64,000 bases of DNA from an uncultured Verrucomicrobiae bacterium (lineage in GTDB: Bacteria > Verrucomicrobiota > Verrucomicrobiia > Chthoniobacterales > JAFAMB01), in contig CAVXLD010000005.1 in assembly GCA_963762565.1 (NCBI GenBank), positions 512,001 to 576,000 of the forward strand, given 5' to 3'. The position numbers were made by a program, and so were the translations under genes. The notes under the pieces were generated by a model. That model made no database searches. It saw nothing but the letters and a program-made list of their open reading frames with translations, and was not told the DNA's origin. Below are positions 26,215 to 62,330 of the stretch, piece after piece (position 1 is the stretch's first letter; the number at the start of each line of letters is the position of its first letter).

Positions 26215-26275
26215 AGCGATTTTGGCTCCAAGGTTTCGGGGGAGGGTTTGATCCGCTCCCCCGTTGGATGAATTT

Positions 26276-27130: not shown

Positions 27131-27209
27131 GTTAGTCGATTTGGTTAGTTGGTTCTGTGAGCCGCAGCAGAGAGGCGAGGCTTTGGGAGCTGCCGGAGTT
27201 TTTTCGACG

Positions 27210-27262
27210 TTCGGTTTCGGTCGAAAAAGTATGCTGGGCATATTTTTCGAACCGAAAGCGAA
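27210..27262 (-). promoter_or_regulatory. Long imperfect hairpin upstream of DUF932 (Frpo/ssi-like candidate)
   Basis: TTCGGTTTCGGTCGAAAAAGTATGC-TGG-GCATATTTTTCGAACCGAAAGCGAA. Confidence 0.5.
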
Positions 27263-28322: not shown

Positions 28323-28337
28323 TGAGAGTGCATGATA

Positions 28338-28871: not shown

Positions 28872-28912
28872 AAGGTTTGTATTTTGCGATTGTCTTCAGT
28901 CAATTGGGCTTT

Positions 28913-31104: not shown

Positions 31105-31106
31105 CG

Positions 31107-31850: not shown

Positions 31851-32259
31851 TAGAACTCCTTTGGTGTGTAGTTGATCCCCTTCTCTGGGGTCCAGGTCGT
31901 GAAGATTGGGTCGTGCTTACGCTGTTTGATTGGCATTACAGAAATTGGTTGGTCGTCGGGTTTCGGGTTGTTCAGGCGAGACTTTCGTGGCGGTGTGAGT
32001 ACGATCTATTTGCGATGGGCCTTCGGTCCCGGTCGATCGGCTGATCTTCGAAGCCCAGTGGCAGCTTTCTCGGCTGGACCGCGCGTTTGAAGAAATCGAT
32101 ACACGTTTGAGGGCGCAATTTTAATTCCATGCGTTGCTTGTTAGATGAGCTGCGATCTCTCTGCCACGTGCGTCTTGCCCTCCGCATCGCGCGGATCTCG
32201 TCAAGATGAGGTAGTAAGAGGCTGCGCCAGGGACGAGGCGGCAATTGATCCTCAGTCAT
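31850..32259 (-). CDS. Small DNA-binding mobilisation protein (StbA/TraK-like by position), frameshifted
   Basis: RSLLLPHLDEIRAMRRARRTW HTH-like start; a shifted frame ends ...GINYTPKEF-TAA overlapping the next ATG. Confidence 0.55.
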
Positions 32260-32271
32260 AAGCAGTATCAC

Positions 32272-32682
32272 AGAGATACTGATCTCAACCTTGAGATCGC
32301 AAGTGAAAACTATTGCCGCTCGTTACCGAGTCGTTGACGTAGATCGTTACCGTTTTTGCGCTGTGACAGACGCAAGAAGCAGCAATGAGGAGCAACAAGT
32401 GCGACAACGACGAGCACAAAGTCGTCACGGTGTGTAATCGGTTGTTGACGCTCTAGTGCACAGTAGGTATCTCAAGAGATACGAAAGGGCCTAACGGAGT
32501 TAGGGGCATGTGCGACATTTAAAGATCGAGCGAAGCGAGTCCTCATTTTGACTCCCGAAGGGGACTAATGACCGCGAAGCGGTGCACCTCTTCGGGGCGG
32601 AGAATCGTAGATAGTTAACTGCGAAAATATACGAAACTGACTAACTCGGGGTAGACAGTTGCGTATCAGATAGAGACACTAA
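32272..32682. other. Probable oriT / divergent promoter region
   Basis: Non-coding gap between relaxase and accessory operon; repeats CGTTACCG x2 and GTTGACG x2; hairpin GTATCTC-AA-GAGATAC (32467-32482). Confidence 0.55.
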
Positions 32683-35600
32683 GTGATGGTTGGTAAGGTA
32701 GTGCACACATCAGCGGCGGAGTTGGTGCGTTATCACGAGCAACATCTTTCTAACGGGGACTATCATTTGGAGGAGGGGAAGGTCCGGGGTGAATTCATCG
32801 GAGGTTTGGCAGACGAGTGGGGACTAAGCGGCGAGGCAATTCTTAAAGGGGATCCAAGGTTTCGAGCGTTCGCCAAATTGGATATCTGCTCGTTGAGCGG
32901 GAGGAAGCTGCAACGACCACGAAAGTCCGAACGTCAGGCGATCGAGTTTGCATACTCGGCTCCAAAATCGGTGAGCATCGCGGCCGTTAATGATCCGCGA
33001 ATCGCAGTAGAGATGTCGGCATCGATTAGAGAAGGAGCTAAAGTGGTTCGAGCGCTTTGCCTGTTGTCGGGACCGACGCGGAGAATTGTACAATTCCGAG
33101 GCGACGCGAAGAACCGGCAAAATGCTGGCCGCCGCGTTCGTACACGAAACATCTCGGGCGAAAGATCCCTCGCTGCACATGCATGTGCTGATCGCGAACG
33201 TCACCGTCGATCCGGAGCGAAACGAAGCGCTGGCCATGAGCTATGGCGAAATGTTTGAGATGCGTAAGACCCTGGATGCACGTATCCATAACAATTTTGC
33301 TCGGAGGCTGAGCAGCTTGGGATACACGGTGGAAGTAGCGGAGCATGGTTTTCGGCTACGAGATATTCCGGCCCCGATCGAAGAGATCTACTCGGTTCGC
33401 AACAAAGAAATCGCTACGGCCAAAGAGTTGCTTAGGGAGGGGTACACGGTCCAGCAGTTGGGGGATGCTCTTCGCGATCGGCCGGTGAAGGAAAAGAGCG
33501 AGCTGTGGGTTTCTGGAAGGATTCGCGAGTTTTTGGGTGCCCCTAAGCTTCCTTCGGATCGAAGCATTGATGAACATGATCTGAATGAACAGGCCTGGCT
33601 GGTAACGCGCCGGCCGAAAGAGATAGCCACGACAGCCGAGCTGAAGGCAACCGTCGAAGCGACATTCCGGGAAAGCGGATTTGAGATGTTTGTCGCGCCC
33701 GAAGCTCGCAGTGAGCCGGCGGTGAGCATGGGTTTGGAAAAAGTGATCAACCAGGGCGTTGCGGCAGTGTTCGAGCGGGAATCAATTGTGCGTGTAGATC
33801 AATTGGTGGGTGAGATCGTCCGCTTGGCGCCTGGTCAGGCAGCCAATTCGCAAATTGAGGCGGCGCTTAAAGAGAATGGCGAATTTGTGCGAAAGAAGAT
33901 TGGTGACCATGAGATGATCACGACCCGCGCAATCGTCGCTGAGGAGGAGGCGATCATTAACGGAGTGAAGGCCGGCACAGGAAAGAAAGCCGCGTTGATC
34001 GCGCGACGCTGAGTACCGGACGCCGGATGAGCTCGGGGTCACGTACGACGGATTGGCGAGGATCGTAACAAACGCTCGCGCGAGAGGTGAAGAGATGACG
34101 AGCGGGCTTGCTGCGCTATGGCTGCAACAGCATGAAGCGGTCAACAAATACGTAATGACCTCGACCGACCGATTCTTGAACATTCGCGGCGGTGCAGGCG
34201 TCGGGAAAACCTATTTTATGGAAAGATTAGTCCGGGCCTCGCTTGATGCAGGCCGCCCGGTTGCTCTGGTCGCTCCATACGGTGAACAGAGCCGGGTAAC
34301 GCTGCGGTCAGAAGCCGAAAGGCTAAGCAGACCAGATGTAGCGGCGGCGTTTCGCGAGGCCAATACGGTTGCGTGGCTCTTGAACAAAACGCGTTTTAGC
34401 GCTGAATTCCGGGAATCGCTGCGGGGAGCCGATATTTACGTTGATGAAGCATCACTTTTGGACAACCAGACGATGCTCGAGCTGGTGAGTTTAGCGAACG
34501 ACATTGATGCGCGAGTTATCTTCCAGGGCGATACGCAACAGCTCCCGGCTGTGGGCCGCGGCCAACCACTAGCGATGTTGGAAAGAGAACTCGGGTTCGG
34601 GATGCACGTCGGACGAATCAACGTTACCCGGCGCCAACTAAAGCTGGAAGATAAGCGGGTAGCACAAGAGCTATCGAGTGGAGACGCTGCTCGGTTCAGC
34701 TCTGCGATCGAAACTCTGATCGAGCGCGGTGCGGTCCGCCGCGGCGGAATCACCGAGGCCGTAGCATGCCATTCTGGCTAACAGAAACGCGAAAAGGCCT
34801 GTAGAAACGATTGTGTTATCGTCTACTCACCGTGTTGCCGAGAAAGTTTCCGAGAAGCTCCATGAGGCTTACAAAGCGGCGAGGCCAGAGCTGAAAATGG
34901 CGCAAATTGCGGCATTCAAGGTGAGGCCGTTGCAATCCGCGGAATTGCTTTCCACAGCTAGTTACCGGCCAGGTGAGATGATCGAATACCGTCCGGACGA
35001 TCAAAAGTGGGCGCGGCTCGCCGAGGTCCAGGAAGTAACCGCCGAAGGAGTGAAAATCAAAGGCCAGCTTAAGGGCGCCCGAGAGCTCGTTCCCTTCAAC
35101 AACGTGAACGCGGTTTACGAAAAAGCGATTCTCGAACGGGGGCCCGGCGAGGCCTTGCTGCTGACTCAGAAGATCAAAGCCGATGGGAAAGTGTACGAGA
35201 ACGGTTCACGGCAAATGATCGCTGCCATAGAGCGGGACCAAATGCGTTTCGAGTCTGGCCTGGAATTAAAACTTGATGACGGCCGGGTTCGTCAAGGCGA
35301 CGCAGTAACGACTTACAAAGCGCAAGGGGCAAGCAAAACGGAAATGATCCGCGTGGAGGATAACCGGTCCTTAGCGGCGATGGCTAACCGCGAGGACTTG
35401 CACGTCGCATTTACGCGGCACCGGGCTGGCGCTCGGATGTATGTGCAAGATATCAACGTGTTGCGGCGGGTGGCTAACCGATCGCTCATCAAAGACACCA
35501 CGGCGCGCGACCTCGAAACGCGAAACATCGAAGCAGTACTAGGGCGACTCGAAGAGGCAGTGAGGCAGGCAGTGATCCACGCCAAGAAGCTCGTAACTGC

Positions 35601-35712
35601 TCCACTGAGGAGCGCAGAGCGAATCCGCGAGCTGCGGATTAAGAAACGCCGGGAGAAAGCGCGGTCTCAACGACGACAGGAGAACCGCGGCGCCGAGATG
35701 GCAACTGTATGA
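32683..35712 (+). CDS. MOBF (TrwC/TraI-like) relaxase-helicase, frameshifted near 33030, 34005 and 34770
   Basis: YSAPKSVS, FVHETSRAKDPSLHMHVLIAN (HUH), YSVRNKEI, GGAGVGKT, VDEASLL, GDTQQLPAVGRG, TTYKAQGAS, VAFTRHR. Confidence 0.93.
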
Positions 35713-50101: not shown

Positions 50102-50123
50102 AAGTGTCCAAGAAGTGTCCAAG
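50102..50123 (+). repeat. Tandem 11-bp repeat, candidate integrase arm-type sites
   Basis: AAGTGTCCAAG x2, about 55 bp from the att site. Confidence 0.5.
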
Positions 50124-50176: not shown

Positions 50177-50224
50177 TGCACCCGGCAGGGCTCGAACCTG
50201 CAACCCTATGATCCGAAGTCATAG
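50177..50224 (-). other. att site: 3' half of tRNA-Arg(UCG), not a full tRNA
   Basis: Minus CTATGA-CTTCGGA-TCATAGGGTTGCAGGTTCGAGCCCTGCCGGGTGCA; anticodon arm and T arm present, D arm and 5' acceptor strand absent. Confidence 0.85.
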
Positions 50225-50691
50225 ACTGTAGAGTCGTGGCAGCCGTAAAAAAAAAGGCTGGTACTTCGATACTGATCACGCGGCCCGTGACGCGCGGGTC
50301 CACAGCACGCCGCGACGGAGGGCACGGCGTTGGGGAATGTCCATCGCTCGGCGCCAGGCGCTCCAAGGTCGCGGCCGGCAAAGGAGAAACGCCCGACTAA
50401 TGCGCCGCCCGGACAACCGATGTGAGAATAGATCGGAAGCGTCCTGAGTTGGGATGGTTAAGAATTTACGCGGCCAAGGGCCCCAGCGATGATTCAGTCG
50501 ATGGATGATGCATCGACAGGTAAATACCGATGAGCGCCTCCGGTCGTGGAAAGGTGAAAGTTGAAAGGAGCTAGGTCGTAGGAGAATCGCAAAAAATCGG
50601 AGGATCTTTATCCGGTTTTTTTGTTTTATAATTTGAGAGAACCTAGAAGTAGAATGACTGAGATGGCACAGCCACCGAGTGTCGAGGTAAC

Positions 50692-51117
50692 ATGAAATCA
50701 AAAACGGCAAAAAGAGCAGCCGCTTTGCAACAGTTCTTTGCCAGAAAAAGCGTCACTCACACCAAATTCTCTCAATCAATGGGAGAAAGCGTCCTATCTG
50801 CTTTAGAAATAGTGGTTAAGACAGCGGACATAACCGAAGAGGACTATGGCGGGGTATGGTACATAAAAGGAAACATTGGAGCAACGCACCAAACCAAAGC
50901 TTCGCTATTGGAACGGATCTCTGGGTTAAGAAACCAAGTAAAACAAGAAAGAGCGGCTGACGCTAGTCTATGCGACTTCTGCCTGCGAGGCGTATCTACC
51001 TGCCTTGACCGAGAACAGGTTCCGCAAACTAACATACAAGAACTGGAAGACGTGCTTGACGCAATACTTCGGGGTATAGCGCATGAGGCAGACGAAACGC
51101 TCTTAAGCCAGCTATAA
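50692..51117 (+). CDS. Unknown protein, paralogue of 36294-36701
   Basis: GAGGT upstream of ATG; conserved with the other copy. Confidence 0.8.
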   Translation: MKSKTAKRAAALQQFFARKSVTHTKFSQSMGESVLSALEIVVKTADITEEDYGGVWYIKGNIGATHQTKASLLERISGLRNQVKQERAADASLCDFCLRGVSTCLDREQVPQTNIQELEDVLDAILRGIAHEADETLLSQL

Positions 51118-51170
51118 GTCGAACAAAGGATTCAAACTCCCGACTTTCCATCTTCTGCGGCAGTGATTGG

Positions 51171-52233
51171 TCATTTCACGATTTTGAACTGCACCTCGGA
51201 ACGGAGCTCAATAGCGTTCAGTTCGTCGACAGCGACCAGCAGATGCTCTGCGAGCTCGGCGTCGGTGAATCCAAGCTCTGATCGATATGTTGAAAGAATT
51301 TCTGCCAGCAGAGTCGGCTGCTCTGGTTTTAGTTTATCGTCGTAGGGTTCACGCTCTTTCATTCCTTCCCGTGACATCTTTGCCCAGTAGTAACGTGCTG
51401 TTGATCTCGTAGATAGCCCCCATGGCCTCTGCGCGCTTGACAAGCGCCTGCATTGACACTCCCCAGTAAAGCTTCAGGCGGGCAAGGCGGTCCATGGACA
51501 AAGGTCTAAAACTTGATTCAATTTCCAAAGCGGGCGTCAAGAATTCTGCCGCAAACTGGAATGCCTCCCTGTTCTTGTTCGGGATCCGGCAGCGTGTTAC
51601 GGTGCATGATTAGATGACCAAGCTCGTGGACGATGGTCGTTCGCTGTCGCACGGCCGAAAGAGAACTATTAACGAAGATGACGGGAGTGCTGCCGACGAA
51701 CATGCTACAAGCGTCGATTTTCCTTGTTCCAAAATCCATAACCCAGACTACGACTCCCGCGTTTTCAACTAATTGGACCACTTTCTTGATGGGGCCCGGA
51801 GGAATTTTCCAATATCGGCGGAGCAGCCGCGCGATTTCAGCCGGTCCACCGGTCATTTCGTGAGGGTCAACAGATGGCAAACCCGGCGTATCGATTTCTG
51901 TGCTGGTTAAGACCTGTCTGACTCGGATCGTCGCAAGAGTTATCAAAGCCCAAAACCTTCTTTGGACCTGCGCAGGGATGCTGACGCGCTTTCTATATTG
52001 AACAAACGTTGGCGCTTCGATCGGTCCTTGATAGCGGAAAAAACTAACGGGCCTATTAAGGGCCTTTCCGAGGTTCTGTTCCAATTCTAGTGTGGGAGCC
52101 AATAAACCTGTCTCCAGCTTTGATAAGTTCCTTGGGTGATGCCCAGCTTTTCGGCCGAAGAACTCTTCTGGGTCTCACCGATTTCCTCGCGCGCTAAGAC
52201 CAGCATTTCAGGTCTTAGCGGCGCTTTCTCCAT
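51171..52233 (-). CDS. XRE HTH fused to ImmA/IrrE (M78) metallopeptidase, frameshifted
   Basis: MLVLAREE...EKLGITQG HTH; RQRTTIVHELGHLIMH (HExxH); LKLYWGVSMQAL. Confidence 0.88.
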
Positions 52234-52795
52234 CGGAGGGAACAATTCCTCCTTTGAGTCGAACTCTGCGAGGCGAGGGGGCAGTTTTGACATCGGTATC
52301 TCCAAATAGGTCCGGGGTAAGAAGCACGGATCGTTCTGTAATGTCGAGAAACCAATTGTTTTCGAGTGGGGTTTTTGGGTTAACGATGAAAAGGGAATAC
52401 CTTGTGTGGGATTCATTCGGACTATATCCCACGGTGAAGCGAGGATAATATATCAAACCGGGTAGTTCCTGTTGGCTGTCGAAAGCTATCGAAGTTTCAT
52501 TTGGACTGTTTATCGCATGCAGTTCCTCGTCCAATTTCTTGAATTGAATCACGGCCCAGTCCTCTAGGATGAAGAGCCTTCGCGTTCTGTATTCGTGTTC
52601 TTTGACCCCAGGCTGGTCGCGAAAAGACTCTCTGCCTACAATGACGGCTCGATTCTGTATTGCGGTGGCCCGATATCGCGAATCATCAAGCGGGTGCATG
52701 GCATGTCTGAAGTACCATTCCCACGCTTCCCTAAAACAATACCTAAACCATTCAACGTAAGGCTCGAACCGCCGATTTGCTTCGATCTCGGTCAT
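52208..52795 (-). CDS. Hypothetical protein overlapping the XRE-M78 gene; candidate toxin/effector
   Basis: 195-aa ORF containing IQFKKLD...NSPN...F..QQELPG...FTVGY; overlaps the next gene. Confidence 0.7.
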   Translation of the reverse strand: MTEIEANRRFEPYVEWFRYCFREAWEWYFRHAMHPLDDSRYRATAIQNRAVIVGRESFRDQPGVKEHEYRTRRLFILEDWAVIQFKKLDEELHAINSPNETSIAFDSQQELPGLIYYPRFTVGYSPNESHTRYSLFIVNPKTPLENNWFLDITERSVLLTPDLFGDTDVKTAPSPRRVRLKGGIVPSDGESAAKT

Positions 52796-53316
52796 GGTCT
52801 CGGGTTATACGCTGCTAGCGCGAAGCTGTCAAAACAATTGCGAAATATTCCCATAAATATTCCAAACAGGTGATTTGAATGGCCTCCGGACAAAAGACTG
52901 GAGGTTAAGCGGGGCCTCGATCCAGCTTATTTTTTTGTCCTGTGCTCCGGCAATCCGATGCCCTTGAATTTGTCTAAGGCACCCACGAACCTGGCCGTCG
53001 CTCAAGTCGTTGATTCAGTTAGTCGCTTGTAACGATACCCTTGGAATGAGCTCACGCGCGTTCCACATCGAGCTCATTTCGGCACTCAGAGGCGGTTAGA
53101 TTAATGCTCGCCAATTTCTTGAAGAAATTCCGGCCTGACGATCTTACCCGGCCCCGTTTGGGCGGCTTGCATATGAGCTTTTTTCTCGACCGACAGCACG
53201 CAGCCGTTTGTGATGATGTGCTGCTCGGCGATCGACTACCCGACCGCATGAAGCTTCGGCAGAACGAATTTGCTACAAGTATCGGACTCCCTAATCACGA
53301 TTCCCCGTCCCCTCGG

Positions 53317-54391
53317 CTAAAGTTTGGTGCCGGTTGGTCCGGAGTTCACCTGCTTCTCGAAGTCTGCAATACGCGCAAGGATTTCGTTTAGGCTTGGAGC
53401 CGCGCCGAAGATCATCCCTGACATGGCAGTGTAGTCGCGGGCCAAGGCAGCGGCCATATCCGGGTTCGGCGTAAGCGTGAATGATCCGGGAACAGCAGTC
53501 GCCAGGTTCAGATCCGGCACTGTTGAAGAACATCCGCGCATGCCGTACGCAATCCTCCGCTAGCTCAAAATCTCTGGCCTGCGTCCCGGCCGAGATTGGA
53601 GTCCAACAATCGAAAGACATCATAGTAATGGCGGGAAATCCGCTGACCGCCACCCCGCAGAGCGCCGCGTCGTTCGAACCATTGGCGCAAACCATGCAAA
53701 ATTATGGCCTTGTCCCAGAACGTCAGCGCGGCAACGACTGTGGTTATTCGGAAACGCTTAGCTCGATTCCCGCAAGATCGTCGGCGACATATGGGCGGAT
53801 GACAGATGGCCGATTTGGATCGAGCGCGGATTTCGCGCCAGACTCGATCTTCACGGCGGGCCGGATGTATCCGTCATCAGCCGCGGTGACCTTCGGGTAC
53901 CAGACCAGAAGGCTTTGCTGATCCGGGTCGTCCGCGTCAGCCTCGACCCGGCCGGCACTCGCATTCATTCCCGCTGCCTCGAGGGCTTCTGCGAGACGCT
54001 TCGCCACCTGCATGCGCATCGCGCCGTTTACATGGGCTTGGGCGGCCGCCTTGATCGCATCAAGCCGCTTACGCCGCTGCTTGCCGCTCAGTGCTTCGAG
54101 TTCCTCGACATTCGCCGCTTCTCCGAGATCGTCGCGAAAGATCGTAATGTCGATGTCTTCGGAAAAGCGCGAGATCAACCGGAAGGCCTTCGACAATGAC
54201 GTTCCGCCTTTGAATAACAAGACGGGGGCCGCCCGATCGGCGTCGTTGAATAGCGCGTCCAGCGTCCAAGCGACCCAGAAATCCTTTTCGATGTTCTGCT
54301 CCGGCGTGCCGAGTCGTTGGCCTGTGCCAAGAAAAGCGTCGCGACGATCAGCCGCCGTGGCCGACAGGAAGGCGTTGAAGGCGGGGTTCAC
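53317..54391 (-). CDS. abiEii: AbiEii-family nucleotidyltransferase toxin, frameshifted in the 3' half
   Basis: IEKDFWV, LFKGGTSLSKAFRLISRFSEDIDI, VKIESGAKS, HARMFFN, DYTAMSGMIFG. Confidence 0.9.
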
Positions 54392-55065
54392 TGCTGTCCC
54401 TTCTTCTGAGGTTTCGGCGGCTTGGTCTCCGGTGCGGCGGGCGCAGGGCATTCCAGCAGAGGCCGAGAAACGTCTGCATCCAGTCCGGCAGCTGGCTGAA
54501 TCCATCACGTAAATCTGCCGCGATGGCCGCGCCATGATCGGGATCCGCGAGGATCGCCGTAAGCCGGCGGGCTGATCCGGTCGTGGTCGCTGTCGATCAT
54601 GCTGCGCAGCCATTGCAGCGCCTGTACAAGACGCATCGCCGGGCTGCCTGCCCAATGCAGCCGGCTGGGGGCGGTCAGTTTGAAGGTGATGGTTTGAGCC
54701 CCGAGCTTGATCGGGCGTAAGCGCGCGTCGGTGTGAACGGAGATCTTGGCGGGCACCGCATCGGTCAGGCCTAGGTCATTTGCAGCGGTTAGACCATCGA
54801 CCAGCATACGCGCCTGGTCGCGCCGTGCGAGCGCGTCGATGACCCGATGCGGATCGGGATTGGTGGGCTTGCCCGTCAGTTTATTGGAGCGCGGCAGGTC
54901 ATAGAGGCCGCGCGTAATCCGGCGAATATTTCCGGCGGTGGTCATGCGTGAAAGCGCCTGGTCGATTGCGTCACGCGAGGCAAGGTCCAGGAAATCGGTA
55001 GGCGTCCAGACGCCGAACGGCGCCTGGGCCGCCATCCTCTTTTGGAGTTCGGTCTTGAGATCCAT
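54388..55065 (-). CDS. abiEi: AbiEi-type (DUF6088-like) antitoxin, frameshifted near 54560
   Basis: TPTDFLDLASRDAIDQALSR...IRRITRGLY, GLTAANDLGLTDAVPA; GTGA overlap with abiEii. Confidence 0.88.
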
Positions 55066-55075
55066 GGTCCGCGCT

Positions 55076-55148
55076 GTCAGAAAAACGTATACGCTCTTCT
55101 GACGGAAAAGTCCAGCGCCTGTCAGAAAATTGTAGACATGCTTCTGAC
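55076..55148. promoter_or_regulatory. Two 28-bp inverted-repeat operators upstream of abiEi
   Basis: GTCAGAA-N14-TTCTGAC at 55076-55103 and 55121-55148. Confidence 0.8.
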
Positions 55149-55713
55149 GCTATTAGGCGCGAGGCCGGAGCCCTCTCCGTGAGTTTAAAACTCACGGTCG
55201 GCGCAGCCATTACTAGCCATCGCCTGCACCTGTGTAGTCAGTCTACAGTCGGAAAGATTTTGAGAGCGCGCCGCATCCGTGAGCGAGCGAAATCCTAGTG
55301 TAACTCGTGCGGTCGAATCGCAATAGCGCGCAAACTGCTATGCCAAATAATTCGCAAAATGACAGGCACTCCTGATTATAGGCCCTTAAGATAACCGCTG
55401 CCTCGGCCCACCGAAACGGGAGCGTGGCGGCATTCTGGTTTCATGGGCACACTATGGGCTCCCACGAGGATCTTGATATTTTTGAGGAAGCAGTGTGCCA
55501 GCAATACAGAAAAATGGACGGCTTTGTAAGAACGAAAATCCAATCCTTCGACCCTCCAAGAGAACTTTGGCGAGCATGCCTCGGTGCGTCTAAACCCGTT
55601 CGCCCAGTTAATTCTTCGAGCAGGATTAACTGTTCAAGAATTGCCGAGAAGTGGCCGAGTCAACTCCAGCAGCGAGCTTCCTGGTTGCGGCGTAAATTAT
55701 TGAGGCTGAGCCG

Positions 55714-55760
55714 TGCACCCGGCAGGGCTCGAACCTGCACCCTATGATCCGAAAGTCATA
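55714..55760 (-). other. att site: second tRNA-Arg(UCG) 3' half, direct repeat of 50177-50224
   Basis: TGCACCCGGCAGGGCTCGAACCTGCA(A)CCCTATGATCCGAA(A)GTCATA; differs only by two A-run indels. Confidence 0.85.
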
Positions 55761-55819
55761 TCCTGCTGTGCCTTTGGCTGCCGCTGAGCCTGATCGTTTC
55801 ATTTCTTTATTCGCCGAAA

Positions 55820-57128
55820 TCACTTGGACGAACGCGGCAATTTACGTGATTTCTTTGACGCGAATAATCTCCCGAGGCCCGGCGTTACTCGCGCCCTTGA
55901 GTCGGTGTAGAAATTGTTGGTAACACTGATATCGGCGTGCCTCAGAGCCTTGCTGGCGGCATGGATGCCGTGCGCCTTATTGATCAGCGAACCGTATTCC
56001 TTCCGTAAGGTATGGAGTGGTTTTTGTGTGTTGACGCCTTTGCTGCGGAGCCAGGCGTTCAGGCTGTCAAAATGGGATTCGCACCTGTAATAGTCTCCCC
56101 TGGTGACGGTCTTGGGGATTCGGTCGGAGGGGATTACAAAGGTGCCTTTTGCTTTGTTCTGGTATTCTCTGAAGATCGACATCACTTCGGTATCCACCTG
56201 AATTTCACCTATCGAGTCTTGAGACTTTGGATGAAAGAATTGGGTTGGCTCGACCCGAATTGCGTTCTCCTTGAACCGAAATGCTGACCATTCCAGAAGG
56301 TCGATCTCCTTCCTTCTCAGGCCCGCAGCGACGCCGAGAAGAAAGATCATATAAACCGGCGGATCTGAGGGTCTGAGCTCTTTATTTGCCAGTTTGATCA
56401 GGTCGAGAACATTAAAGTTACTGCGGTACTTCATGCTCTGGCGCGGTTCGAATTCGACGCCATCGAAAGGCAAAGGAGAGGGCAGGCTGAGTGGCAGTTG
56501 CCGAAGGACCTTTCGGCGAAAAGAGGCTGCGCGATCGCCGGAGAAGTGTGTTCACGGAGATCCGCGCTTTGCGAAGAGCTAGCGGGTCATCCCCGGCCGC
56601 CGCAAGGAATGATTGTTTCCATTCCTGGATCTTGGCGGGAGTGATTTCGCTGAGACAGATTCCGTGGATCTTAGCTAACCATTCGTCCCGGCCGCCGGAT
56701 TGGTAATCGAATTTTGCCGGGTCAGTGGCGAGTCCGAAGAGGTCGGCGACGACTTTCCGGAACGCAATTGCGTACCCTTCGATTGTGGATCGGCTCGTGC
56801 AGACGCTGAATACCGCGTCAAGAAAGGAACCGACCGTAATTTCGGAAGTATCTGCTGCCGGCGCAGATTGAGACCTCGCCTTATACCTTGCAAGCGTCAG
56901 GGGCCAACCGTTGACGGTGAGGAACAGGAATATGTCTCGCGCCTTTGCTGCCGCGGCCGCTCTGTTTGGGGTACCGAGCTGGAAAAAAGCCCGTTTTCCC
57001 TGAAACTGGACCCGTGCGTACCATTCCTTGGTCAATCGACGTTGGCCATCTACGATGTACGGTTGCCGGAAAACTGCGCTCTGCCAGAACCGGATATCGG
57101 TTTTTGGAAAGTGGCTAAGATTTTTCAT
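55820..57128 (-). CDS. Tyrosine recombinase/integrase, frameshifted near 56510
   Basis: GLRRKEI, HTLRKEYGS, LRHADISVTNNFY (R, H-x-x-R, H, Y); N-terminal arm-binding-like WYARVQFQGKR. Confidence 0.93.
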
Positions 57129-57142
57129 TTCTTAGCCACTTT
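57108..57142. promoter_or_regulatory. Perfect 13-bp inverted repeat around the integrase start codon
   Basis: AAAGTGGCTAAGA-TTTTTCATT-TCTTAGCCACTTT. Confidence 0.65.
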
Positions 57143-57280
57143 TTTGGTTCATCCCTGGACCGTTTTGACCTTTCATGAGCCGGTGCCGCAAATGATAGAG
57201 TGGCTCTAAAAGCGTGTCCAGGAGCCAATCGACGGCTCATAGCAGCTCATATCGGATCACAGAAATCGGGGGAGCCATAC

Positions 57281-57323
57281 ACTCTTAATCACTGGGTTGT
57301 AGGTTCGATTCCTACACGGTGCA
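57281..57323 (+). other. att site: 3' half of tRNA-Lys(CUU), not a full tRNA
   Basis: ACTCTTAATCACTGGGTTGTAGGTTCGATTCCTACACGGTGCA; upstream sequence gives no D arm or acceptor pairing. Confidence 0.8.
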
Positions 57324-57377
57324 TGCTTCAGTATCAGGGAGTTAGCGACAAAGTCGTTGAGACCTCTTTGTGCCGTC

Positions 57378-57782
57378 TTAGCCAATTTTGAACGTTGGAT
57401 GAGAACCGCCCCACGTGCCCCAATCCGATTCTTGCCCCAACCCGGCGGCTTCAAGACTTTCGTTCCTAAATTGAATCGCCGTACGAATCTGCCTGTAAGC
57501 TTGATACTGAGTTGGACCACCTACATAGGCCTGATTGTTAGTTGCGTCCGGGAAAACGTAGTAGGTCTTCCCGTCTTTCCGGATCAGCGTTACTCGATCA
57601 GAGGGAAGTTCTTTAAGTCTTTGTTGCTGCGCGGCCGTACGGGGGACGATCGCTTTGAAGCCTGCGGCGATTAGAAACCTCTCTTGGTTCCGCGTCTCCC
57701 TCTGCGTCATGGTGCAGCTAACTGCCAGTGCTAAAAGCGCGATGGCGCCGATGAGATTGAATCCGGTGAATATATGTTTCAT
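57378..57782 (-). CDS. Small lipoprotein of unknown function
   Basis: Signal peptide with LAVSC lipobox; GGGGA upstream. Confidence 0.75.
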   Translation of the reverse strand: MKHIFTGFNLIGAIALLALAVSCTMTQRETRNQERFLIAAGFKAIVPRTAAQQQRLKELPSDRVTLIRKDGKTYYVFPDATNNQAYVGGPTQYQAYRQIRTAIQFRNESLEAAGLGQESDWGTWGGSHPTFKIG

Positions 57783-58237
57783 GCTTTCCCCTTTTTTATT
57801 GGTTAGTTATTTGGTCCGGTTAGTTACCTTTTGATGGTGTGACTCGCGTTGTCGCTGGGTATTGGGTTTTGCCTATTCCGCGCTAGCTCTAAATCGTTCC
57901 CAAAAAGGGCGAGCGACCCTTTCGCAACAATCACGCACCGGAACCCATGCGGCGCAGGGCCGCATAAGCGCCGCCACCCGCGTAGTTAGCGCCGGTGCAT
58001 TTGCGCGAGATCCATCAACCGGCCGAAGGTCCGTAAGTCGGCGTGATAGAGGAGTCATAGTTTCAATAAAGCCACAAGTTTCCAGTGCGGACAGCCCTTC
58101 AGCAACGCTTCAGACTTCGGCGCCTATCAATGTGTAGCAAGACTATCCCGTTCAATTGCTAACAAAGCCGCAAGGCTGCCCAAAACCGATTGACACCGCG
58201 ATGTCAAGTCACTATCCGTTGTGGGTGGCGGTGTACG

Positions 58238-59032
58238 ATGCTATCCTCCCCGAATCACTTGCCGCTTCCTGCGGCTGTCCTCGACGCCGGTCTCCGAGAC
58301 CGCGAACATCTCCGCCACCTGTTACTTGCGCATCCATCAGTGGATCTTAAAGCTGAACTCTCGGCGCTTGCGGAGGTTAGAGAGACCATCGAATCAATTT
58401 CTTTGCGCCTTTTGTTCTGCGACCTGGGAGACGATCCAGCGCAGATCTTCGCTTGGCTCGGCAACAGACCGCCGACCCTGGACGTGATTCTCATGACCAA
58501 AGAGGAAAAATGGGCTGCTCGCGCGTTCGAGGTGGACGCTTTGGATTTTCTCTTAAAGCCGTTGTCGAAGGAGCAACTGAACCGCAGTCTTCGCCGGTTG
58601 TTACGGCTGGACTGGTCCAGCAATGTTAGCGCCGCACCGGCGGAGCGAGCGTTTGTGCCTTTCGAACGCGGACGGCGTTTGGTGTCGGTTGATGAAATTT
58701 GTGCGATTCAAGCGGTCGGAAATTACACGCGGATTCTTTTTGCGGACGGCACCACCGAGGTTGCGCTGCGCCCGCTGCGGCGATGGGAGGAGACACTCCC
58801 CAAGAATAGCTTTTTGCGGATTCATCGATCAACACTCGCCAATACCAAGCGCGTGCGGCGGATTGAGATGACCGGGAAAGGTGACGAATGCTGGGCTGAG
58901 GTTGACGGCATCACGGAAAGACTTGCCGTCAGCAGGAGATCTTTGGGGGGGGTTCGCGCGGTTTTGAGTATGACCGAGTCAAAAACGGCTCGATTCGCCT
59001 TTAGCGGAGGTCAATTAAGCACGCCGCTTTAG
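58238..59032 (+). CDS. LytTR-family response regulator with a degenerate receiver domain
   Basis: LLFCDL, AFEVDALDFLLKP, IQAVGNYT, FLRIHRSTLAN, LAVSRR. Confidence 0.9.
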   Translation: MLSSPNHLPLPAAVLDAGLRDREHLRHLLLAHPSVDLKAELSALAEVRETIESISLRLLFCDLGDDPAQIFAWLGNRPPTLDVILMTKEEKWAARAFEVDALDFLLKPLSKEQLNRSLRRLLRLDWSSNVSAAPAERAFVPFERGRRLVSVDEICAIQAVGNYTRILFADGTTEVALRPLRRWEETLPKNSFLRIHRSTLANTKRVRRIEMTGKGDECWAEVDGITERLAVSRRSLGGVRAVLSMTESKTARFAFSGGQLSTPL

Positions 59033-59037
59033 ATACC

Positions 59038-60162
59038 GTGAGCCAACCGTCCCCCAGACAGAACCTCTTCCGAGAAGCGGCCCTCGCCAAGATTCGCTCG
59101 CCGGAACAGCTCGACGCGTTGCTTCCAATTACTTCGCCTTTGGGCTGGTTGGCTTTATTGACGTCGGCCATCGCGCTGGGCGTCCTCATATTCTGGGCCT
59201 TTTTCGGCATGATCGTTCGCACCGCGACAGGCCAAGGCATTATTGTCCGTAATAGCGAATCGGGCCTCAGCTCGGTCGTCGGCCAAGGATCGGGGCTAGT
59301 CTCCGAAGTCCTCATAAAGCCCGGTGACAGTGTGCAAGCAGGTCAGGTCATGTTTTACTTGGATCTCACCCCGCTCAAGCAGCAGTTGGCCAGCGCCGAA
59401 AGCACGATGGAAAGTCTTCTGGCCCAAGATGCTAACCAAGCCAAGGACGAATCGGATAGGATCAAGACCTTACAAGAAAAATTGGCAAACCAGCAGAGCC
59501 TCTATGACCAAGGTCTCCTGACGAAAAGTCAGATCCTGGATACGAAGAACGCCATTTACGACGTCCAGGCGCGCCAGTATTCCCGGAACCAACAGATATC
59601 CGATCAGAGAGCCAGGATTCGGGATCTTGAACTTCGTCTGATACAAGAAGGAACGATTCGCTCCGTTCGTGCCGGGCAAGTGATCGAGGTCCAAGTCGGA
59701 CTTGGTGATTTCATCCAGCCCGGGCGAGTGCTTGCGCGTATGGAAGGTCTTTCCGGTGACCGGGGAGCTCTGGTTTTTGTGCCAGCGAATGAAGGTAAGA
59801 ACATCAAGACCGGCATGACGATCCGGATCTCGCCATCCACCGTAAAACCAGAGGAATACGGTTATATCCAGGGCAAGGTTAAAAGTGTCTCCTCTTACCC
59901 GGTGACCAGAGATGAGATGATGTTCTACCTGCAGAATGAAGTACTGGTCAATCGCCTGCTTCAAAGCGGCGAGACGATTTCTGTAGCGGCGACCTTGGAA
60001 TCGGATCCCAGCACCCCGAGCGGGCTACGCTGGTCTTCCTCCGAGGGTCCCGATCTTCCGGTGGAAGGTGGAACGGTATGCAGCGCCTCGGTTGTACTGG
60101 CACGGCAGCGCCCCATCACTTTGCTGGTTCCATTTCTCAAAAAGCAGCTGGGTCTGTATTAA
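59038..60162 (+). CDS. NHLP bacteriocin system secretion protein (HlyD-like)
   Basis: LFREAALAKIRSPEQLD, SPSTVKPEEYGYIQG, TPSGLRWSSSEGP, RPITLLVP. Confidence 0.92.
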   Translation: MSQPSPRQNLFREAALAKIRSPEQLDALLPITSPLGWLALLTSAIALGVLIFWAFFGMIVRTATGQGIIVRNSESGLSSVVGQGSGLVSEVLIKPGDSVQAGQVMFYLDLTPLKQQLASAESTMESLLAQDANQAKDESDRIKTLQEKLANQQSLYDQGLLTKSQILDTKNAIYDVQARQYSRNQQISDQRARIRDLELRLIQEGTIRSVRAGQVIEVQVGLGDFIQPGRVLARMEGLSGDRGALVFVPANEGKNIKTGMTIRISPSTVKPEEYGYIQGKVKSVSSYPVTRDEMMFYLQNEVLVNRLLQSGETISVAATLESDPSTPSGLRWSSSEGPDLPVEGGTVCSASVVLARQRPITLLVPFLKKQLGLY

Positions 60163-62330
60163 TGGCGATTCGTCTACCGAACCGGCGCGTGCGCACCCCG
60201 ACGGTGATCCAAATGGAAGCTGTCGAATGCGGCGCGGCGGCACTGGCCATCGTGCTTGGCCACTATGGTCGAATTGTTCCGCTCGAGCAGTTGCGCGAGG
60301 AATGCGGCGTGTCACGCGACGGAAGCAGGGCGCTGAACGTCATTAAAGCAGCCACGCGTTACGGTCTGGAGTCAAAAGGCTTTAAGTACGATATCGGGAA
60401 GCTGGCCAAAGTGCGGTTGCCGGCCATCTTGTTCTGGAATTTTAATCACTTTGTCGTGCTGGACGGTATCAGCGGGCACGGCAAAGTCTTCCACATTAAC
60501 GACCCAGCCCGAGGCCGCCGAAAAGTCCACGCCGACGAGTTCAACGACAGTTATACAGGCATAGTTCTGACTTTTCAGCCGACTCCGGAATTTCGAAAAG
60601 GGGGCCGCAGACCCAGCACGCTGAGGTTTCTCGGTGCACGGCTGCAAAAGAGCCGCACCGCCTTCGTCTATGCGTTTCTTTGCGCACTGCTGCTGGTAAT
60701 TCCCGGTCTCATCATCCCGGCGTTTATGCGGGTTTTCATCGATGATTATCTGGTTGGCTCAGAAAAGACCTGGATCCGCCCGCTCCTTGCCGGAATGGCC
60801 GCTGTTCTGCTTCTGCAGATGCTCCTCACGGCGCTTCAGCAATATTGCCTGCTGCGTTTTCGAGAGAAGCTCTCACTGGCAGGCTCTGGCCGTTTCCTTA
60901 AGCATATTTTGCGGCTACCGATGCGCTACTTTTCCCAGAGGTTCGCCGGCGAGATCGGTTCCCGGCTTCCTCTTAATGATGAGGTGGCGGGGGTGGTCGG
61001 GGGGCAGCTCGCGAAAATCTCGTTGGATCTGGTGCTAGTGGTTTTCTTTGCCGTCTTGATGTTTTTGTATGACCCGGTCCTCGCCACAATCTGTGTAGGC
61101 GTGGCGCTGATCAACGCAGCGATTGTCCAAATCGTAGGCCGAGCCCGCGCCGACAAGAATCGGATTGCAACTCAGCACTATGGAAAGATGACCGGCACGT
61201 CGATCAACGGTCTTCAGATGATCGAGACGTTAAAGGCGAGCGGAGGAGAAGATGAATTCTTTGGACGTTGGGCGGGGTATCAAGCCCAGTATCTAGCTGA
61301 AAAACAAGCACTGCTTACCTTTTCGCAATATATTATGACGGTCCCGACGGTGCTCAACGCCATGAGCACGACGATCGTCCTGGCGGTGGGCGCTTTCCGG
61401 ATCATGGACGGCAGCATTACCTTGGGAACCTTTGTGGCGTTTCAGGCGTTAGCCGGCCAATTCGCGGGTCCATTGAATAGCTTGATCCAATTTGCCAATA
61501 ACCTTCAGATGTTAGCTGCGAACATCACCCGCATCAATGACGTATTCCAGGCGCCGGAGGATCCCATCTACGCGGCGCAACCGGATACGGCTAAGTTTGC
61601 ATCCGTTTCCAGTCTCAGCGGGCGACTAGAGCTTATCGATGTCACGTTCGGCTATTCTCCCCTTGAGAGACCGCTGATCGAAAATTTTAGCCTGAGCCTT
61701 TCACCCGGTTCTCGAGTGGCGCTGGTTGGCGGCAGCGGCAGCGGTAAATCCACCATCGCTAAGCTCGCCTCGGGGCTCTATCGGCCTTGGAGGGGCGAAG
61801 TCCGATTCGACGGCTATACGATCGATGAAATTCCGAGGGACCTCTTTGCGATTTCCGTGGCCATGGTAGACCAGGATGTCATCTTAATTTCGGGTTCAGT
61901 AAAAGACAATCTCACCCTGTGGAACGCCTCAGTGCCCGAACAGGCGATCCACCGGGCGTGCGACTATGCCGGAATCGCTCACGTCATCGCCTCGCGCAGC
62001 GGCGGCTATCAGAGCGAGCTTGGTGAAGGCGGGGGCAATCTTAGCGGCGGGGAACGCCAACGTTTGGAGATCGCTCGCGCCCTGGTGCACAGTCCCAGCC
62101 TTCTGATTCTTGATGAAGCGACCAGTGCTTTGGATGCCACCACCGAGATGGTAATCGATCAAAACCTGCGCCGGAGCGGCTGCGCCTGTTTAATCGTGGC
62201 ACACCGGCTAAGCACGATCCGGGATGCTGACGAAATCATCGTGATGGACGCTGGCAAGATCGTCGAGCGGGGAGTGTTCGAGGAATTACACGCCCGAAGA
62301 GGCAGCCTATTTCGCTTGATGGAACAATGA
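60162..62330 (+). CDS. NHLP-family ABC exporter with C39 peptidase
   Basis: TPTVIQMEAVECGAAAL, CGVSRDGS, FWNFNHFVV, GGSGSGKST, LSGGERQR, LDEATSALD. Confidence 0.95.
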   Translation: MAIRLPNRRVRTPTVIQMEAVECGAAALAIVLGHYGRIVPLEQLREECGVSRDGSRALNVIKAATRYGLESKGFKYDIGKLAKVRLPAILFWNFNHFVVLDGISGHGKVFHINDPARGRRKVHADEFNDSYTGIVLTFQPTPEFRKGGRRPSTLRFLGARLQKSRTAFVYAFLCALLLVIPGLIIPAFMRVFIDDYLVGSEKTWIRPLLAGMAAVLLLQMLLTALQQYCLLRFREKLSLAGSGRFLKHILRLPMRYFSQRFAGEIGSRLPLNDEVAGVVGGQLAKISLDLVLVVFFAVLMFLYDPVLATICVGVALINAAIVQIVGRARADKNRIATQHYGKMTGTSINGLQMIETLKASGGEDEFFGRWAGYQAQYLAEKQALLTFSQYIMTVPTVLNAMSTTIVLAVGAFRIMDGSITLGTFVAFQALAGQFAGPLNSLIQFANNLQMLAANITRINDVFQAPEDPIYAAQPDTAKFASVSSLSGRLELIDVTFGYSPLERPLIENFSLSLSPGSRVALVGGSGSGKSTIAKLASGLYRPWRGEVRFDGYTIDEIPRDLFAISVAMVDQDVILISGSVKDNLTLWNASVPEQAIHRACDYAGIAHVIASRSGGYQSELGEGGGNLSGGERQRLEIARALVHSPSLLILDEATSALDATTEMVIDQNLRRSGCACLIVAHRLSTIRDADEIIVMDAGKIVERGVFEELHARRGSLFRLMEQ

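Follow-up and report, generated by a model that had tools for sequence, protein, structure and literature searches.

The window analysed here is a stretch of 64,000 nucleotides of DNA from an uncultured Verrucomicrobiae bacterium, in which positions 55714-57323 hold a tyrosine integrase gene flanked by 3' fragments of two tRNAs, tRNA-Arg(UCG) and tRNA-Lys(CUU) (Table 1). Both fragments had been noticed in a preliminary description, and both are real. Using BLAST against the genome's tRNAs, the Arg(UCG) 3' half was placed on the minus strand, beginning 55 nt past the integrase stop codon, while the Lys(CUU) 3' half lies on the plus strand about 150 nt from the integrase ATG and ends in GGTGCA. 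ARAGORN identified no tRNA genes within the window, which agrees with the earlier statement that neither parent tRNA is present there.

The C-terminal ORF of the integrase matches Pfam PF00589, the tyrosine recombinase/phage integrase domain (E = 2.1e-10; 41.1 bits against a cut-off of 27.1). Across ten homologs, R289/R290, H390, R393 and H415 are invariant and Y425 is nearly so, and the R, HxxR, H and Y residues occupy the same columns in the window's C-terminal ORF. The reading frame is interrupted by one extra base at about 56511-56514; intact homologs measure 435-470 aa. This base (56511 or 56514) is absent from the covering contigs of four of four runs, including X20 (98-99% identical), and could have arisen by true mutation or through an error in the assembly; no run in the search contained more than 37% of the sampled words. 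When the whole genome was searched for this integrase family, no further member was found.

Table 1. Features of the integrase module and the adjoining DNA, in window coordinates.
Feature	Position	Strand	Remarks
Conjugative-element genes deeper in the island	23153-35712		
DUF932 gene	26276-27241		
T4 coupling protein gene	28913-30526		
ParA gene	31107-31850		
TrwC relaxase gene	33086-35712		split
Tandem arm-type repeats CTTGGACACT x2	50103-50123	minus	P' arm following A2
Second tRNA-Arg(UCG) copy, A2	50177-50243	minus	direct orientation to A1; cleaner; 5.5 kb away
Integrase-less segment, 5.5 kb	50244-55607	minus	between the two Arg copies
ImmA/IrrE peptidase gene	51518-52102		in 5.5-kb segment; Pfam
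AbiEii gene	53744-54655		in 5.5-kb segment; Pfam
DUF6088/AbiEi-like gene	54505-55065		in 5.5-kb segment; Pfam
P' arm of the element attached at the proposed pad	55608-55713	minus	tandem arm-type repeats CTCGGCCACTT / CTCGGCAATT at 55639-55659
tRNA-Arg(UCG) 3' fragment, A1	55714-55764	minus	proposed landing-pad core; co-oriented with integrase; matched to tRNA of relatives
Spacer X	55765-55819	minus	stop codon to Arg core; conserved in close relatives
Integrase gene (whole)	55820-57128	minus	split by one extra base
Integrase C-terminal ORF, 217 aa	55820-56473	minus	catalytic domain; stop codon 55820-55822; Pfam PF00589
Integrase N-terminal ORF, 236 aa	56418-57128	minus	arm-binding and core-binding part; ATG at 57128
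Integrase frameshift site	56505-56520	minus	one base more than intact relatives; alignment with L149
Arm-type 10-mer CTTAGCCACT, inverted pair	57110-57119; 57131-57140	minus; plus	brackets integrase start codon
P arm	57129-57277		integrase start to Lys core; same arm left of all three Lys fragments
tRNA-Lys(CUU) 3' fragment	57278-57323	plus	own att core and identity block; 57281-57323 identical (43/43) to tRNA positions 31-73
Degenerate P'-type arm motif CTTAGCCAAT	57377-57386	plus	outside Lys fragment

The tRNA-Lys(CUU) att site

The Lys fragment of the window is the third and last downstream of an intact tRNA-Lys(CUU) gene, which is located 170 kb upstream on the same strand (C5:398885-398957, +); two more direct copies lie between them (C5:449527-449572 and 480291-480337). 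An intact gene at this distance, together with the two intervening fragments, identifies an island array. The arrangement corresponds to an Islander tDNA island, whose definition requires an intact tDNA and its 3' fragment to share replicon and orientation, to enclose an integrase and to delimit 2-200 kb: here the fragments follow the tRNA at 449.5, 480.3 and 569.3 kb (+), the integrase lies at 567.8-569.1 kb and the span is 170 kb. The array includes a conjugative backbone, two-component systems and defence genes.

From its sequence context, Lys(CUU) is probably the window integrase's own specificity, with an own att half-site, composed of the P arm and the tRNA-Lys 3' identity block, that lies upstream of the gene and is divergent from it. 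This assignment is based on the intact tRNA-Lys(CUU) and the three direct fragments, with their common P arm, on an integrase remnant of 36 aa beside the fragment f1, and on the motif CTTAGCCACT, found at +65 past the intact tRNA-Lys as well as at the start of the integrase gene. P arms of different integrase sublineages are homologous to one another. The window half-site would represent the far junction of a 170-kb array inserted into tRNA-Lys(CUU). A tblastx comparison of the array's right flank with the tRNA-Lys loci of relatives yielded no match, and the sole match within the genus was a multi-copy 134-aa ORF.

The tRNA-Arg(UCG) core and the DNA beyond it

The Arg fragment A1 covers the relatives' tRNA-Arg(UCG) from its anticodon stem through to its 3' end. 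It differs from the tRNA by an extra T (giving an 8-nt anticodon loop), by the loss of one T from the variable loop and by one substitution; with its frameshifted integrase and these three changes in the pad core, the window's copy of the module is decayed. In close relatives the same core is 100% identical to tRNA-Arg(UCG) positions 24-74. The split integrase, the three differences in the Arg fragment and the second, cleaner Arg copy had been overlooked in the preliminary description. Spacer X, between stop codon and core, is also found in L149, L152, L158, L164, L165, L195, L203 and L204; it corresponds to no tRNA 5' half and to no P arm, and no homology was seen when it was compared with P arms.

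Of the two parent genes named in the preliminary description, that for tRNA-Lys(CUU) could be located, but the 15-contig assembly contains no intact tRNA-Arg(UCG), only the two 3' copies, and Arg(UCG) forms no Islander pair. As this assembly is 93.7% complete and also lacks tRNA-Tyr, the absence of tRNA-Arg(UCG) from the organism is not proven. The gene is missing from its native locus (C12:~479 kb), where no tRNA-Arg 5' half is left, and neither G020 nor G022 yielded an ordinary 74-nt tRNA-Arg(UCG) copy.

The DNA past A1 begins with a P' arm. Window positions 55608-55760, comprising this arm and part of A1, share 92.9% identity over 154 bp with G023:C212, in which the matching arm abuts homologs of the ParA and T4CP genes found at 28935-31758 of the window. 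In the second copy, A2, the loop is the canonical one of 7 nt and the tRNA-like 5' part is degenerate; this copy scores 23.4 bits against the Rfam tRNA model, below the gathering score of 29. A2 and its following arm are 89% identical to the arm that is located directly at the L195 pad, so that, compared with L195, an additional 5.5-kb segment is inserted at the pad of the window. A1 and A2 are in direct orientation, 5.5 kb apart with no integrase between them, as in accretion or CIME-like structures, and direct Arg pairs enclosing integrase-less cargo are also seen in L158 and L166-168. Two integrase-less segments lie behind the Arg core in the window. For the conjugative element, neither an integrase of its own (within the family searched) nor a third Arg copy was found in the genome. 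An Arg array in G012 was also examined; it has no integrase and is not related to the conjugative genes of the window.

Recurrence of the module

At least six contigs from soil metagenomes carry the 1.6-kb block delimited by the Lys and Arg 3' ends, at roughly 95-96% identity, and the DNA flanking it on either side is unrelated. The window's locus is 95-96% identical to L149, L152, L165, L204 and L158, bounded exactly by the Lys and Arg 3' ends, and 95.7% identical to L195 up to the Arg 3' end, the upstream side of L195 being cut by the contig end. Homology outside the module ends within about 25 bp. The junctions are bridged by contigs of other soil runs (X3 record 25, 55664-55940; X1 record 7, 57128-57300). 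Since the same arrangement is found in independent contigs and its junctions are bridged, it is the product neither of chance nor of misassembly, which had been raised as grounds for dismissing it. A soil-Verrucomicrobiota clade of tyrosine integrases has a conserved 1.6-kb integration module, of which positions 55714-57323 are one copy. Among near-identical modules (95-98% identical), the core and spacer X are conserved while the sequence past the Arg 3' end differs, which points to recent recombination at the Arg core.

We surveyed 164 distinct integrase loci, grouped by identity to the G020 integrase (at least 65%, 50-65% and below 50%), using a reference set of 70 tRNAs to detect fragments. 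In these counts, which include near-duplicate contigs, an antisense tRNA 3' fragment was found within 450 bp upstream at 12/14, 16/20 and 40/64 loci of the three groups, respectively, and the intact tRNA, where visible, was located 4-6 kb downstream and antisense (L067, L091, L105 and L114). To judge from this layout, the family's own att site is the divergent upstream fragment. A co-oriented fragment within 450 bp past the stop codon was found at 13/27 and 10/36 loci in the two closer groups, compared with 0/73 in the rest; the two-tRNA sandwich is clade-specific and recurrent. The upstream/downstream pairs observed were Lys/Arg(UCG) (nine), Arg(UCG)/Lys (two) and Arg(ACG)/Gln (one), with the mirror arrangement of Arg upstream and Lys downstream, like the Arg(ACG)/Gln pair, belonging to related sublineages. 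Among the 13 loci in which identity reached 65% or more and both flanks could be seen, 9 had both tRNAs in the same geometry; the close homologs therefore do not associate with one tRNA only, as the preliminary description had envisaged they might. At L148, a 96%-identical integrase has no spacer or pad. Ancestral adjacency of the Lys and Arg(UCG) genes was considered and rejected: in five relatives with long contigs the two lie on different contigs or megabases apart. The close Lys-Arg pairs of G022 and G010 involve Arg fragments, not genes.

Arm-type motifs

The inverted CTTAGCCACT pair at the integrase start is shared by L149, L152, L153, L165 and L156. In modules with CTTAGCCACT at this position the pad is followed by CTTGGACACT or CTCGGCCACT arms. 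Conversely, the Arg-specific integrases L178 and L173 have CTTGGACACT at their start, and the Lys pad of L178 leads into CTTAGCCACT arms. Arm motifs do not map strictly onto tRNA types: CTTAGCCACT is the motif of L167 (Arg-ACG), CTTGGACACT is that of L171 (Arg-ACG) as well as of L192/L197 (Lys), and the Gln pad of L166/L167 is followed by a motif resembling the module's own. No arm motif was detected in the scanned stretch after 9 of 24 pads (including L153, L155, L158, L163 and L190; L164 is cut by the contig end). The geometry and conservation of the module, its boundaries at the two tRNA 3' ends, its variable flanks and its arm motifs are all directly visible in these comparisons.

A proposed landing pad and its alternatives

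Taken together, we consider it somewhat probable that the Arg core is a portable attB-like landing pad, into which Arg-specific elements insert and at which they stack. The module would carry a second, foreign att core, copied from tRNA-Arg(UCG), right after the integrase stop codon, and circular Arg(UCG)-specific elements would recombine with it by means of an integrase, encoded by themselves or acting in trans, that has a different arm-type motif. Such recombination would cause the DNA beyond the core to be replaced and stacked, the newest insert lying closest to the integrase; both the recombination at the pad and the enzyme responsible are features that we infer from sequence. In the window, the stack would consist of the 5.5-kb AbiE/ImmA segment, nearest to the integrase, and then the second Arg copy leading into cargo and conjugation genes. 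An element carrying a landing pad for other islands is also the best supported of the three options in the preliminary description: the module is conserved including its spacer and Arg core, the DNA past the core is variable, the arm repeats there are mostly not the integrase's own, and integrase-less Arg-bounded segments are stacked behind.

Several observations count against a landing pad. No empty pad was seen among the loci, and no second integrase was found at E<=1e-10 within 5 kb on either side of the metagenome loci. The elements at pads are all integrase-less or long, and the genome has no other integrase of the family. To these can be added the 9 of 24 pads with no detected arm motif, the imperfect link between arm motif and tRNA, the padless L148, and a spacer that resembles neither a tRNA 5' half nor a P arm.

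An alternative that we regard as unlikely is that one integrase uses both cores, either entering tRNA-Lys(CUU) or tRNA-Arg(UCG) or using the Arg core to capture cassettes that lack an integrase, in the way that attI serves an integron integrase. This would be consistent with the inheritance of the Arg core and spacer with the integrase gene, with segments behind pads that have no integrases, and with the single family integrase in the genome. In addition, the pattern TGA-CT....A-TCA is common to the Lys and Arg(UCG) anticodon arms, and apparently to those of Arg(ACG) and Gln in the sequences compared, so that one core-binding specificity could serve all of them, with the partner chosen by overlap identity. 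However, the arms adjacent to the pad mostly bear a motif other than that bracketing the integrase start, a mismatch that disfavours the dual-specificity integrase put forward at the outset. Furthermore, the spacer is just 55-85 nt long among modules and is devoid of arm-type motifs, and direct Lys repeats, in the window's own array and in L165, place the body of the element on the pad side. No locus has an intact tRNA-Arg at the predicted position, a weak point as the contigs are short.

More doubtful still is the idea of a passive fossil, in which the Arg core would be a relic of a former specificity, a module swap or the seam of nested decayed islands, with no present function. Decay is evident in the window copy (the frameshift and three core changes), and these genomes abound in integrase-less remnants and mixed tRNA fragments (for example C1:1068712-1069086), among them a 6.7-kb integrase-less Arg element in G012 and Gln and Arg fragments in G004; specificity also switches often along the integrase tree. 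Yet a functionless relic is difficult to square with close relatives in which the pad core still matches tRNA-Arg(UCG) 24-74 at every position, with the spacer kept and the DNA beyond variable, or with the analogous pads for other tRNA pairs, including the reciprocal one, that arose in sister lineages.

Finally, an inversion or translocation between Lys and Arg islands (including one like that of polypartite ICEs), or an assembly artefact, is very improbable, and the inversion proposed in the preliminary description can be rejected. In its favour, the fragments are mutually inverted and share 19/25 bases in their T-arm/acceptor parts, a third, inverted Arg copy lies 145 kb away from the Arg array of G017, and the native tRNA-Arg locus is empty in the window's genome. 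Against it, neither core is a Lys/Arg hybrid, the identical arrangement is found in many independent contigs as well as in the genomes of relatives, both junctions are spanned by contigs from other runs, the native locus retains no tRNA-Arg 5' half, and the genome has one family integrase against the three recombinases reported for tripartite ICEs (PMC5882170).

Comparison with known systems

The titles and abstracts covered by our literature search describe no integrase flanked by att cores of two tRNAs. In integrons, a recombination site is fixed beside the integrase gene and leads into a series of cargo units that lack an integrase and are each delimited by such a site; the defining parts are an IntI-type integrase, an attI site upstream of a divergent intI, and attC-bounded cassettes. 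The likeness of the window module to this system is a functional analogy only, and the module does not have the layout of an integron: its integrase, which has arm-type sites, belongs to the phage/island type; the recombination site is downstream of the gene and points the same way, where attI is upstream and divergent; tRNA 3' halves with P' arm repeats take the place of attC hairpins; and the units are kilobases long with several genes.

The module shares with Islander class A islands, which have a tyrosine integrase and an anticodon-centred attP, the PF00589 domain, an attP whose tRNA part runs from the anticodon arm to the 3' end, and an intact tRNA with displaced 3' fragments in direct orientation and in tandem arrays (PMC4383910). 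It differs from them in its conserved second core, which comes from a different tRNA, follows the stop codon, is co-oriented with the integrase and faces away from the own core. Islander filters match each fragment to its own tDNA (PMC4383910), and a two-tRNA arrangement would go unreported.

ICE/IME accretion, CIMEs and phage-ICE tandems likewise feature integrase-less segments in direct att repeats beside an integrase-bearing element, and incoming elements that exploit resident att sites (PMC5704250, PMC7563491, PMC13651849). In the known cases the att specificity is the same as that of the resident, whereas the window has a docking site from another tRNA, built into the integrase module. 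The tripartite ICEs of Mesorhizobium resemble the window in having regions bounded by att sites of different targets, with several specificities in one composite; they are reported to need three recombinases and chromosomal inversions (PMC5882170), whereas the window's genome, searched for this family, has one family integrase, hybrid sites are absent and only one gene lies between the two cores, which sets it outside the polypartite ICEs. IMEs and satellites nested in ICE or prophage genes provide a further precedent for one mobile element serving as the target of another; in the known examples the incoming element enters a protein gene of its host element (PMC5704250, PMC10111431), in contrast to a mimic of a chromosomal tRNA attB.

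Implications

As sister sublineages have the reciprocal pad (an Arg-specific integrase with a Lys pad), the two kinds of element could nest mutually. It is conceivable, and we suggest it tentatively, that Lys- and Arg-specific families each keep a mimic of the other's chromosomal attB behind the integrase gene. If so, the families could insert into one another, and likewise into the Gln and Arg-ACG variants, irrespective of host tRNA genes, and would travel along on each other's excision and assemble large composite islands. In the boldest form of reciprocal pads, the adjacent integrase would capture integrase-less defence-gene units, making the locus an integron-like platform of tRNA-derived sites.

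Island finders and current models assume a single att specificity per integrase module. The modules also represent naturally paired attB/attP sets from uncultured soil Verrucomicrobiota that are usable in recombination assays. Landing pads would permit integration in hosts that have no target tRNA gene, such as one with an assembly like this one, in which no intact tRNA-Arg(UCG) is present, and foreign pads would explain the clusters of unrelated tRNA fragments in island-rich genomes. A conserved foreign att core behind the integrase would supply a simple mechanism for composite islands, and the module may in this way help to explain how large composite genomic islands are built.

The integrase gene and its two tRNA fragments

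The preliminary description placed the integrase between 3′ fragments of two different tRNAs, with neither parent gene in the window. Both points were borne out: the tRNA-Lys(CUU) and tRNA-Arg(UCG) fragments flank the gene as described, and ARAGORN calls no tRNA gene in the window. Relative to tRNA-Arg(UCG), the Arg fragment next to the integrase (A1) has one extra T in the anticodon loop, lacks one T in the variable loop and carries one substitution; the missing T was seen again in a comparison with contigs from sequencing runs, as a base inserted at 55738. The Rfam tRNA model spans both A1 and a second Arg copy (A2) end to end, at scores below the gathering threshold (19.9 bits for A1 and 23.4 for A2, versus 29).

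Integrase halves and tRNA fragments in the window
Feature	Position	Strand	Remarks
Integrase N-terminal ORF	57128-56418	minus	236 aa; overlaps second ORF
Integrase C-terminal ORF	56473-55820	minus	217 aa; PF00589 match
tRNA-Lys(CUU) 3′ fragment	57281-57323	plus	identical to positions 31-73 of the source genome's tRNA-Lys(CUU)
tRNA-Arg(UCG) 3′ fragment, A1	55714-55764	minus	anticodon stem onward, compared with the intact gene in relatives
Second Arg copy, A2	50177-50243	minus	normal anticodon loop

Alignment with intact homologues of 437-452 aa identified the two ORFs as the halves of a single integrase, whose frame is interrupted between ...SLFSPK and VLRQL...; the second half matches PF00589 (E 2.1e-10, 41.1 bits, cut-off 27.1). 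Compared with the intact gene of locus L149 (95.9% identical; L-numbers denote integrase loci from relatives' genomes and metagenomes), the window gene contains one surplus base. Since the base is missing in 4 of 4 soil or related runs with contigs across this position, among them X20 with pieces of 98-99% identity to the window, the frameshift may reflect either a mutation specific to the strain or an error of assembly. The window's own copy of the module is decayed. In a tree of 74 proteins its integrase is sister to that of a relative, G020 (SH-aLRT 99), and the records with related integrases are labelled Verrucomicrobiota. The source genome comprises 6.1 Mb in 15 contigs, the window being C5:512001-576000. 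An MFS sugar transporter (window 21337-22804) and a TrwC-type relaxase (33086-35712) are also broken, into two and three ORFs respectively, so that either further island genes besides the integrase are broken or the assembly has indel errors.

The integrase's own attachment site

Integrase relatives were collected from 43 genomes of the family (19 with a match), from a species-genome collection (80 loci) and from metagenomes (80 loci, using an alignment of the closest relatives as query); the 190 loci entering the tally gave 164 distinct integrase loci with a match once identical modules were merged. Of the loci with at least 65% identity to the G020 integrase, 12 of 14 have an antisense tRNA 3′ fragment no more than 450 bp upstream of the integrase start, as do 16 of 20 at 50-65% and 40 of 64 below 50%; the fragments derive from tRNAs for Phe, Arg(ACG), Arg(UCG), Lys, Thr, Gln, Met, Leu, Ala or Trp. 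Where the locus includes an intact tRNA (L067, L091, L105, L114), it lies 4-6 kb downstream of the integrase, antisense. Taken together, these data identify the divergent upstream fragment, Lys in the window, as the integrase's own att site. In one relative (G017:C8:171114-187490; L142/L143), a 16-kb prophage-like element with a terminase and a family A DNA polymerase is bounded by an intact tRNA-Arg(UCG) and a fragment of this tRNA, and a 465-aa family integrase is present in canonical geometry; a third, inverted Arg copy lies 145 kb away.

A conserved module with a second tRNA core

Among loci with at least 65% identity, 13 of 27 have a fragment of a different tRNA, co-oriented with the integrase, no further than 450 bp past its stop; this fragment is hereafter called the pad. 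It was present in 10 of 36 loci at 50-65% and in none of 73 below 50%. The possibility that homologous integrases associate with only one of the two tRNAs did not hold: among loci with both flanks visible, nine combine Lys upstream with Arg(UCG) downstream (the window's own and some near-duplicates counted), two show the mirror pair of Arg(UCG) upstream and Lys downstream, and one pairs Arg(ACG) upstream with Gln downstream. The same Lys-like/integrase/Arg layout, with an intact 452-aa gene, occurs in G020 (contig C8), which was left out of the tally because ARAGORN takes its pad for a 70-nt tRNA and the filter drops the locus.

Between its Lys and Arg 3′ ends, the window module is 95-96% identical to those of L149, L152, L165, L204 and L158, and up to the Arg 3′ end 95.7% identical to that of L195, whose upstream side ends with the contig. 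Homology ends within about 25 bp beyond either side; the 55-nt spacer between stop and Arg core is kept in these relatives, and the sequence past the Arg 3′ end is contig-specific. Independent contigs span both module junctions and neither core is a Lys/Arg hybrid, which excludes misassembly and a one-off inversion between two islands, both raised in the preliminary description. In metagenome locus L148, integrase DNA 96% identical to the window's diverges exactly from the stop codon; the spacer and Arg core are absent, and the Lys core is reduced to 19 nt.

Parent tRNA genes and the Lys array

The strand that bears the window's Lys fragment also carries the intact tRNA-Lys(CUU), 170 kb further upstream at C5:398885-398957 (+). 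Two more Lys 3′ fragments lie at C5:449527-449572, adjoined by a 36-aa leftover of the integrase N-terminus, and at 480291-480337; all three fragments have the same P arm (att flank) on their left. Three Lys-type insertions, 50.6, 30.8 and 89 kb long, thus follow one another as a tandem array. A 134-aa ORF immediately outside the window's Lys fragment (57378-57782) recurs at C13:55534-55915 with 93% identity and in same-genus relatives with 85-89%, so what lies to the right of the array may be something other than its native flank. Adjoining the array, window 58190-62330 is a bacteriocin-type export locus, encoding a LytTR response regulator, an HlyD-family protein and a C39-peptidase ABC transporter.

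No full tRNA-Arg(UCG) was found among the 43 tRNAs that ARAGORN called in the source assembly (93.7% complete), from which tRNA-Tyr and Gly-GCC are likewise missing. The gene 5′ of tRNA-Arg(UCG) in three same-genus relatives corresponds to C12:479064-479972, with no tRNA after it; in the tRNA's place, the region C12:477800-479972 has a GTGATTG-type tandem repeat and an ArsR-like gene. Of the 24 other family genomes searched, 16 contain the Arg pattern, frequently in several copies.

Arms and stacked segments behind the pad

The DNA after the tRNA 3′ ends is organised like the P′ arms of this family, with a tandem 10-mer pair about 55-80 nt past the tRNA end. An inverted CTTAGCCACT pair surrounds the integrase start in the window, L149, L152, L153, L165 and L156, and CTTAGCCACT also lies at +65 after intact tRNA-Lys. 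The arm after A1, however, carries CTCGGCCACTT / CTCGGCAATT rather than CTTAGCCACT, and that after A2 carries two copies of CTTGGACACT. This last motif recurs in the post-pad arms of close relatives (L149, L152, L154, L165, L195, L203, L204) and at the own start of the Arg(UCG)-specific integrases L178 and L173; the Lys pad of L178 is followed by CTTAGCCACT arms. The link between tRNA and motif is not strict (exceptions L167, L171, L192/L197), and no arm motif was detected in the stretch scanned after 9 of 24 listed pads. The pad-adjacent arm with part of A1 (window 55608-55760) is 92.9% identical over 154 bp to a contig of relative G023, in which homologues of the ParA and T4 coupling protein genes of window 28935-31758 directly adjoin the arm.

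A2 and its arm show 89% identity to the arm sited directly at the pad in L195, so that, compared with L195, the window has an additional 5.5-kb segment inserted at its pad. This segment encodes AbiEii, a DUF6088 protein and an ImmA/IrrE peptidase, and no integrase. Direct Arg copies also flank integrase-less cargo in L158 (a mechanosensitive channel gene) and L166-168 (a reverse transcriptase). No second family integrase was found in the source genome, nor in the metagenome loci at E<=1e-10 within 5 kb either side. Two metagenome relatives have att-bounded units with defence-type cargo: a TOTE conflict-system gene between two Lys fragments (L165:1650-4622) and a reverse transcriptase gene between two Arg fragments (L167:6843-8405).

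Other tRNA pieces were observed in the same comparisons. C1:1068712-1069086 of the source genome is another mixed att cluster, with an Arg-CCU 5′ piece and Arg-ACG and Lys-CUU 3′ pieces in under 400 bp. In L007 (G010:C181:1123-1970), a stretch of 850 bp holds tRNA-Gln(CUG), an Arg(UCG) fragment that has a P′ arm, and a complete tRNA-Lys(CUU); in L047 (G022:C32), 1.1 kb separates an intact tRNA-Lys from the Arg fragment after it, which ARAGORN reports as a 72-nt tRNA. A short repeat family of the source genome (e.g. C3:959130-959221) accounts for nearly all of the 409 genome-wide fragment matches listed by BLAST for this query set, one copy being miscalled by ARAGORN as a 92-nt tRNA-Ala(cgc), and separate repeat families of about 130 and 280 bp were seen in comparing relatives' loci with this genome.

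Interpretation

It is standard for islands to form tandem arrays at tRNA genes and for their attP sites to be centred on the anticodon, with 125 tandems among 3919 islands (PMC4383910). Accretion of ICEs, IMEs, CIMEs and phages at common att sites is already reported (PMC13651849, PMC5704250), as are tripartite ICEs with several att specificities and three recombinases (PMC5882170). Among the titles and abstracts listed by the literature searches, none reports a conserved integrase module with a second tRNA's att core, which is not proof of novelty.

The suggestion that the element carries a landing pad for other islands is the reading of the Arg core that fits best, judging from the sequence comparisons, although no empty pad was seen among the loci compared. 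Arg-specific circles would use the spacer-plus-core site like an attB for recombination, leaving the core and the circle's own P′ arm beside the integrase and shifting older inserts outward. Such a process would explain why the module ends sharply and keeps its spacer, why relatives have a perfect core, why the arms vary and bear foreign motifs, and why there are stacked integrase-less segments and mirror-image modules. Possibly the adjacent integrase itself acts at the pad, through a dual attP or as an integron-like platform, given that the targeted anticodon arms are alike and that the inserts carry no integrase. In view of the recent turnover past the conserved core, a fossil without function is the less likely reading. 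In our interpretation, a Lys(CUU)-specific element ends in this module, and its body begins with a foreign att core acting like a recombination hot spot.
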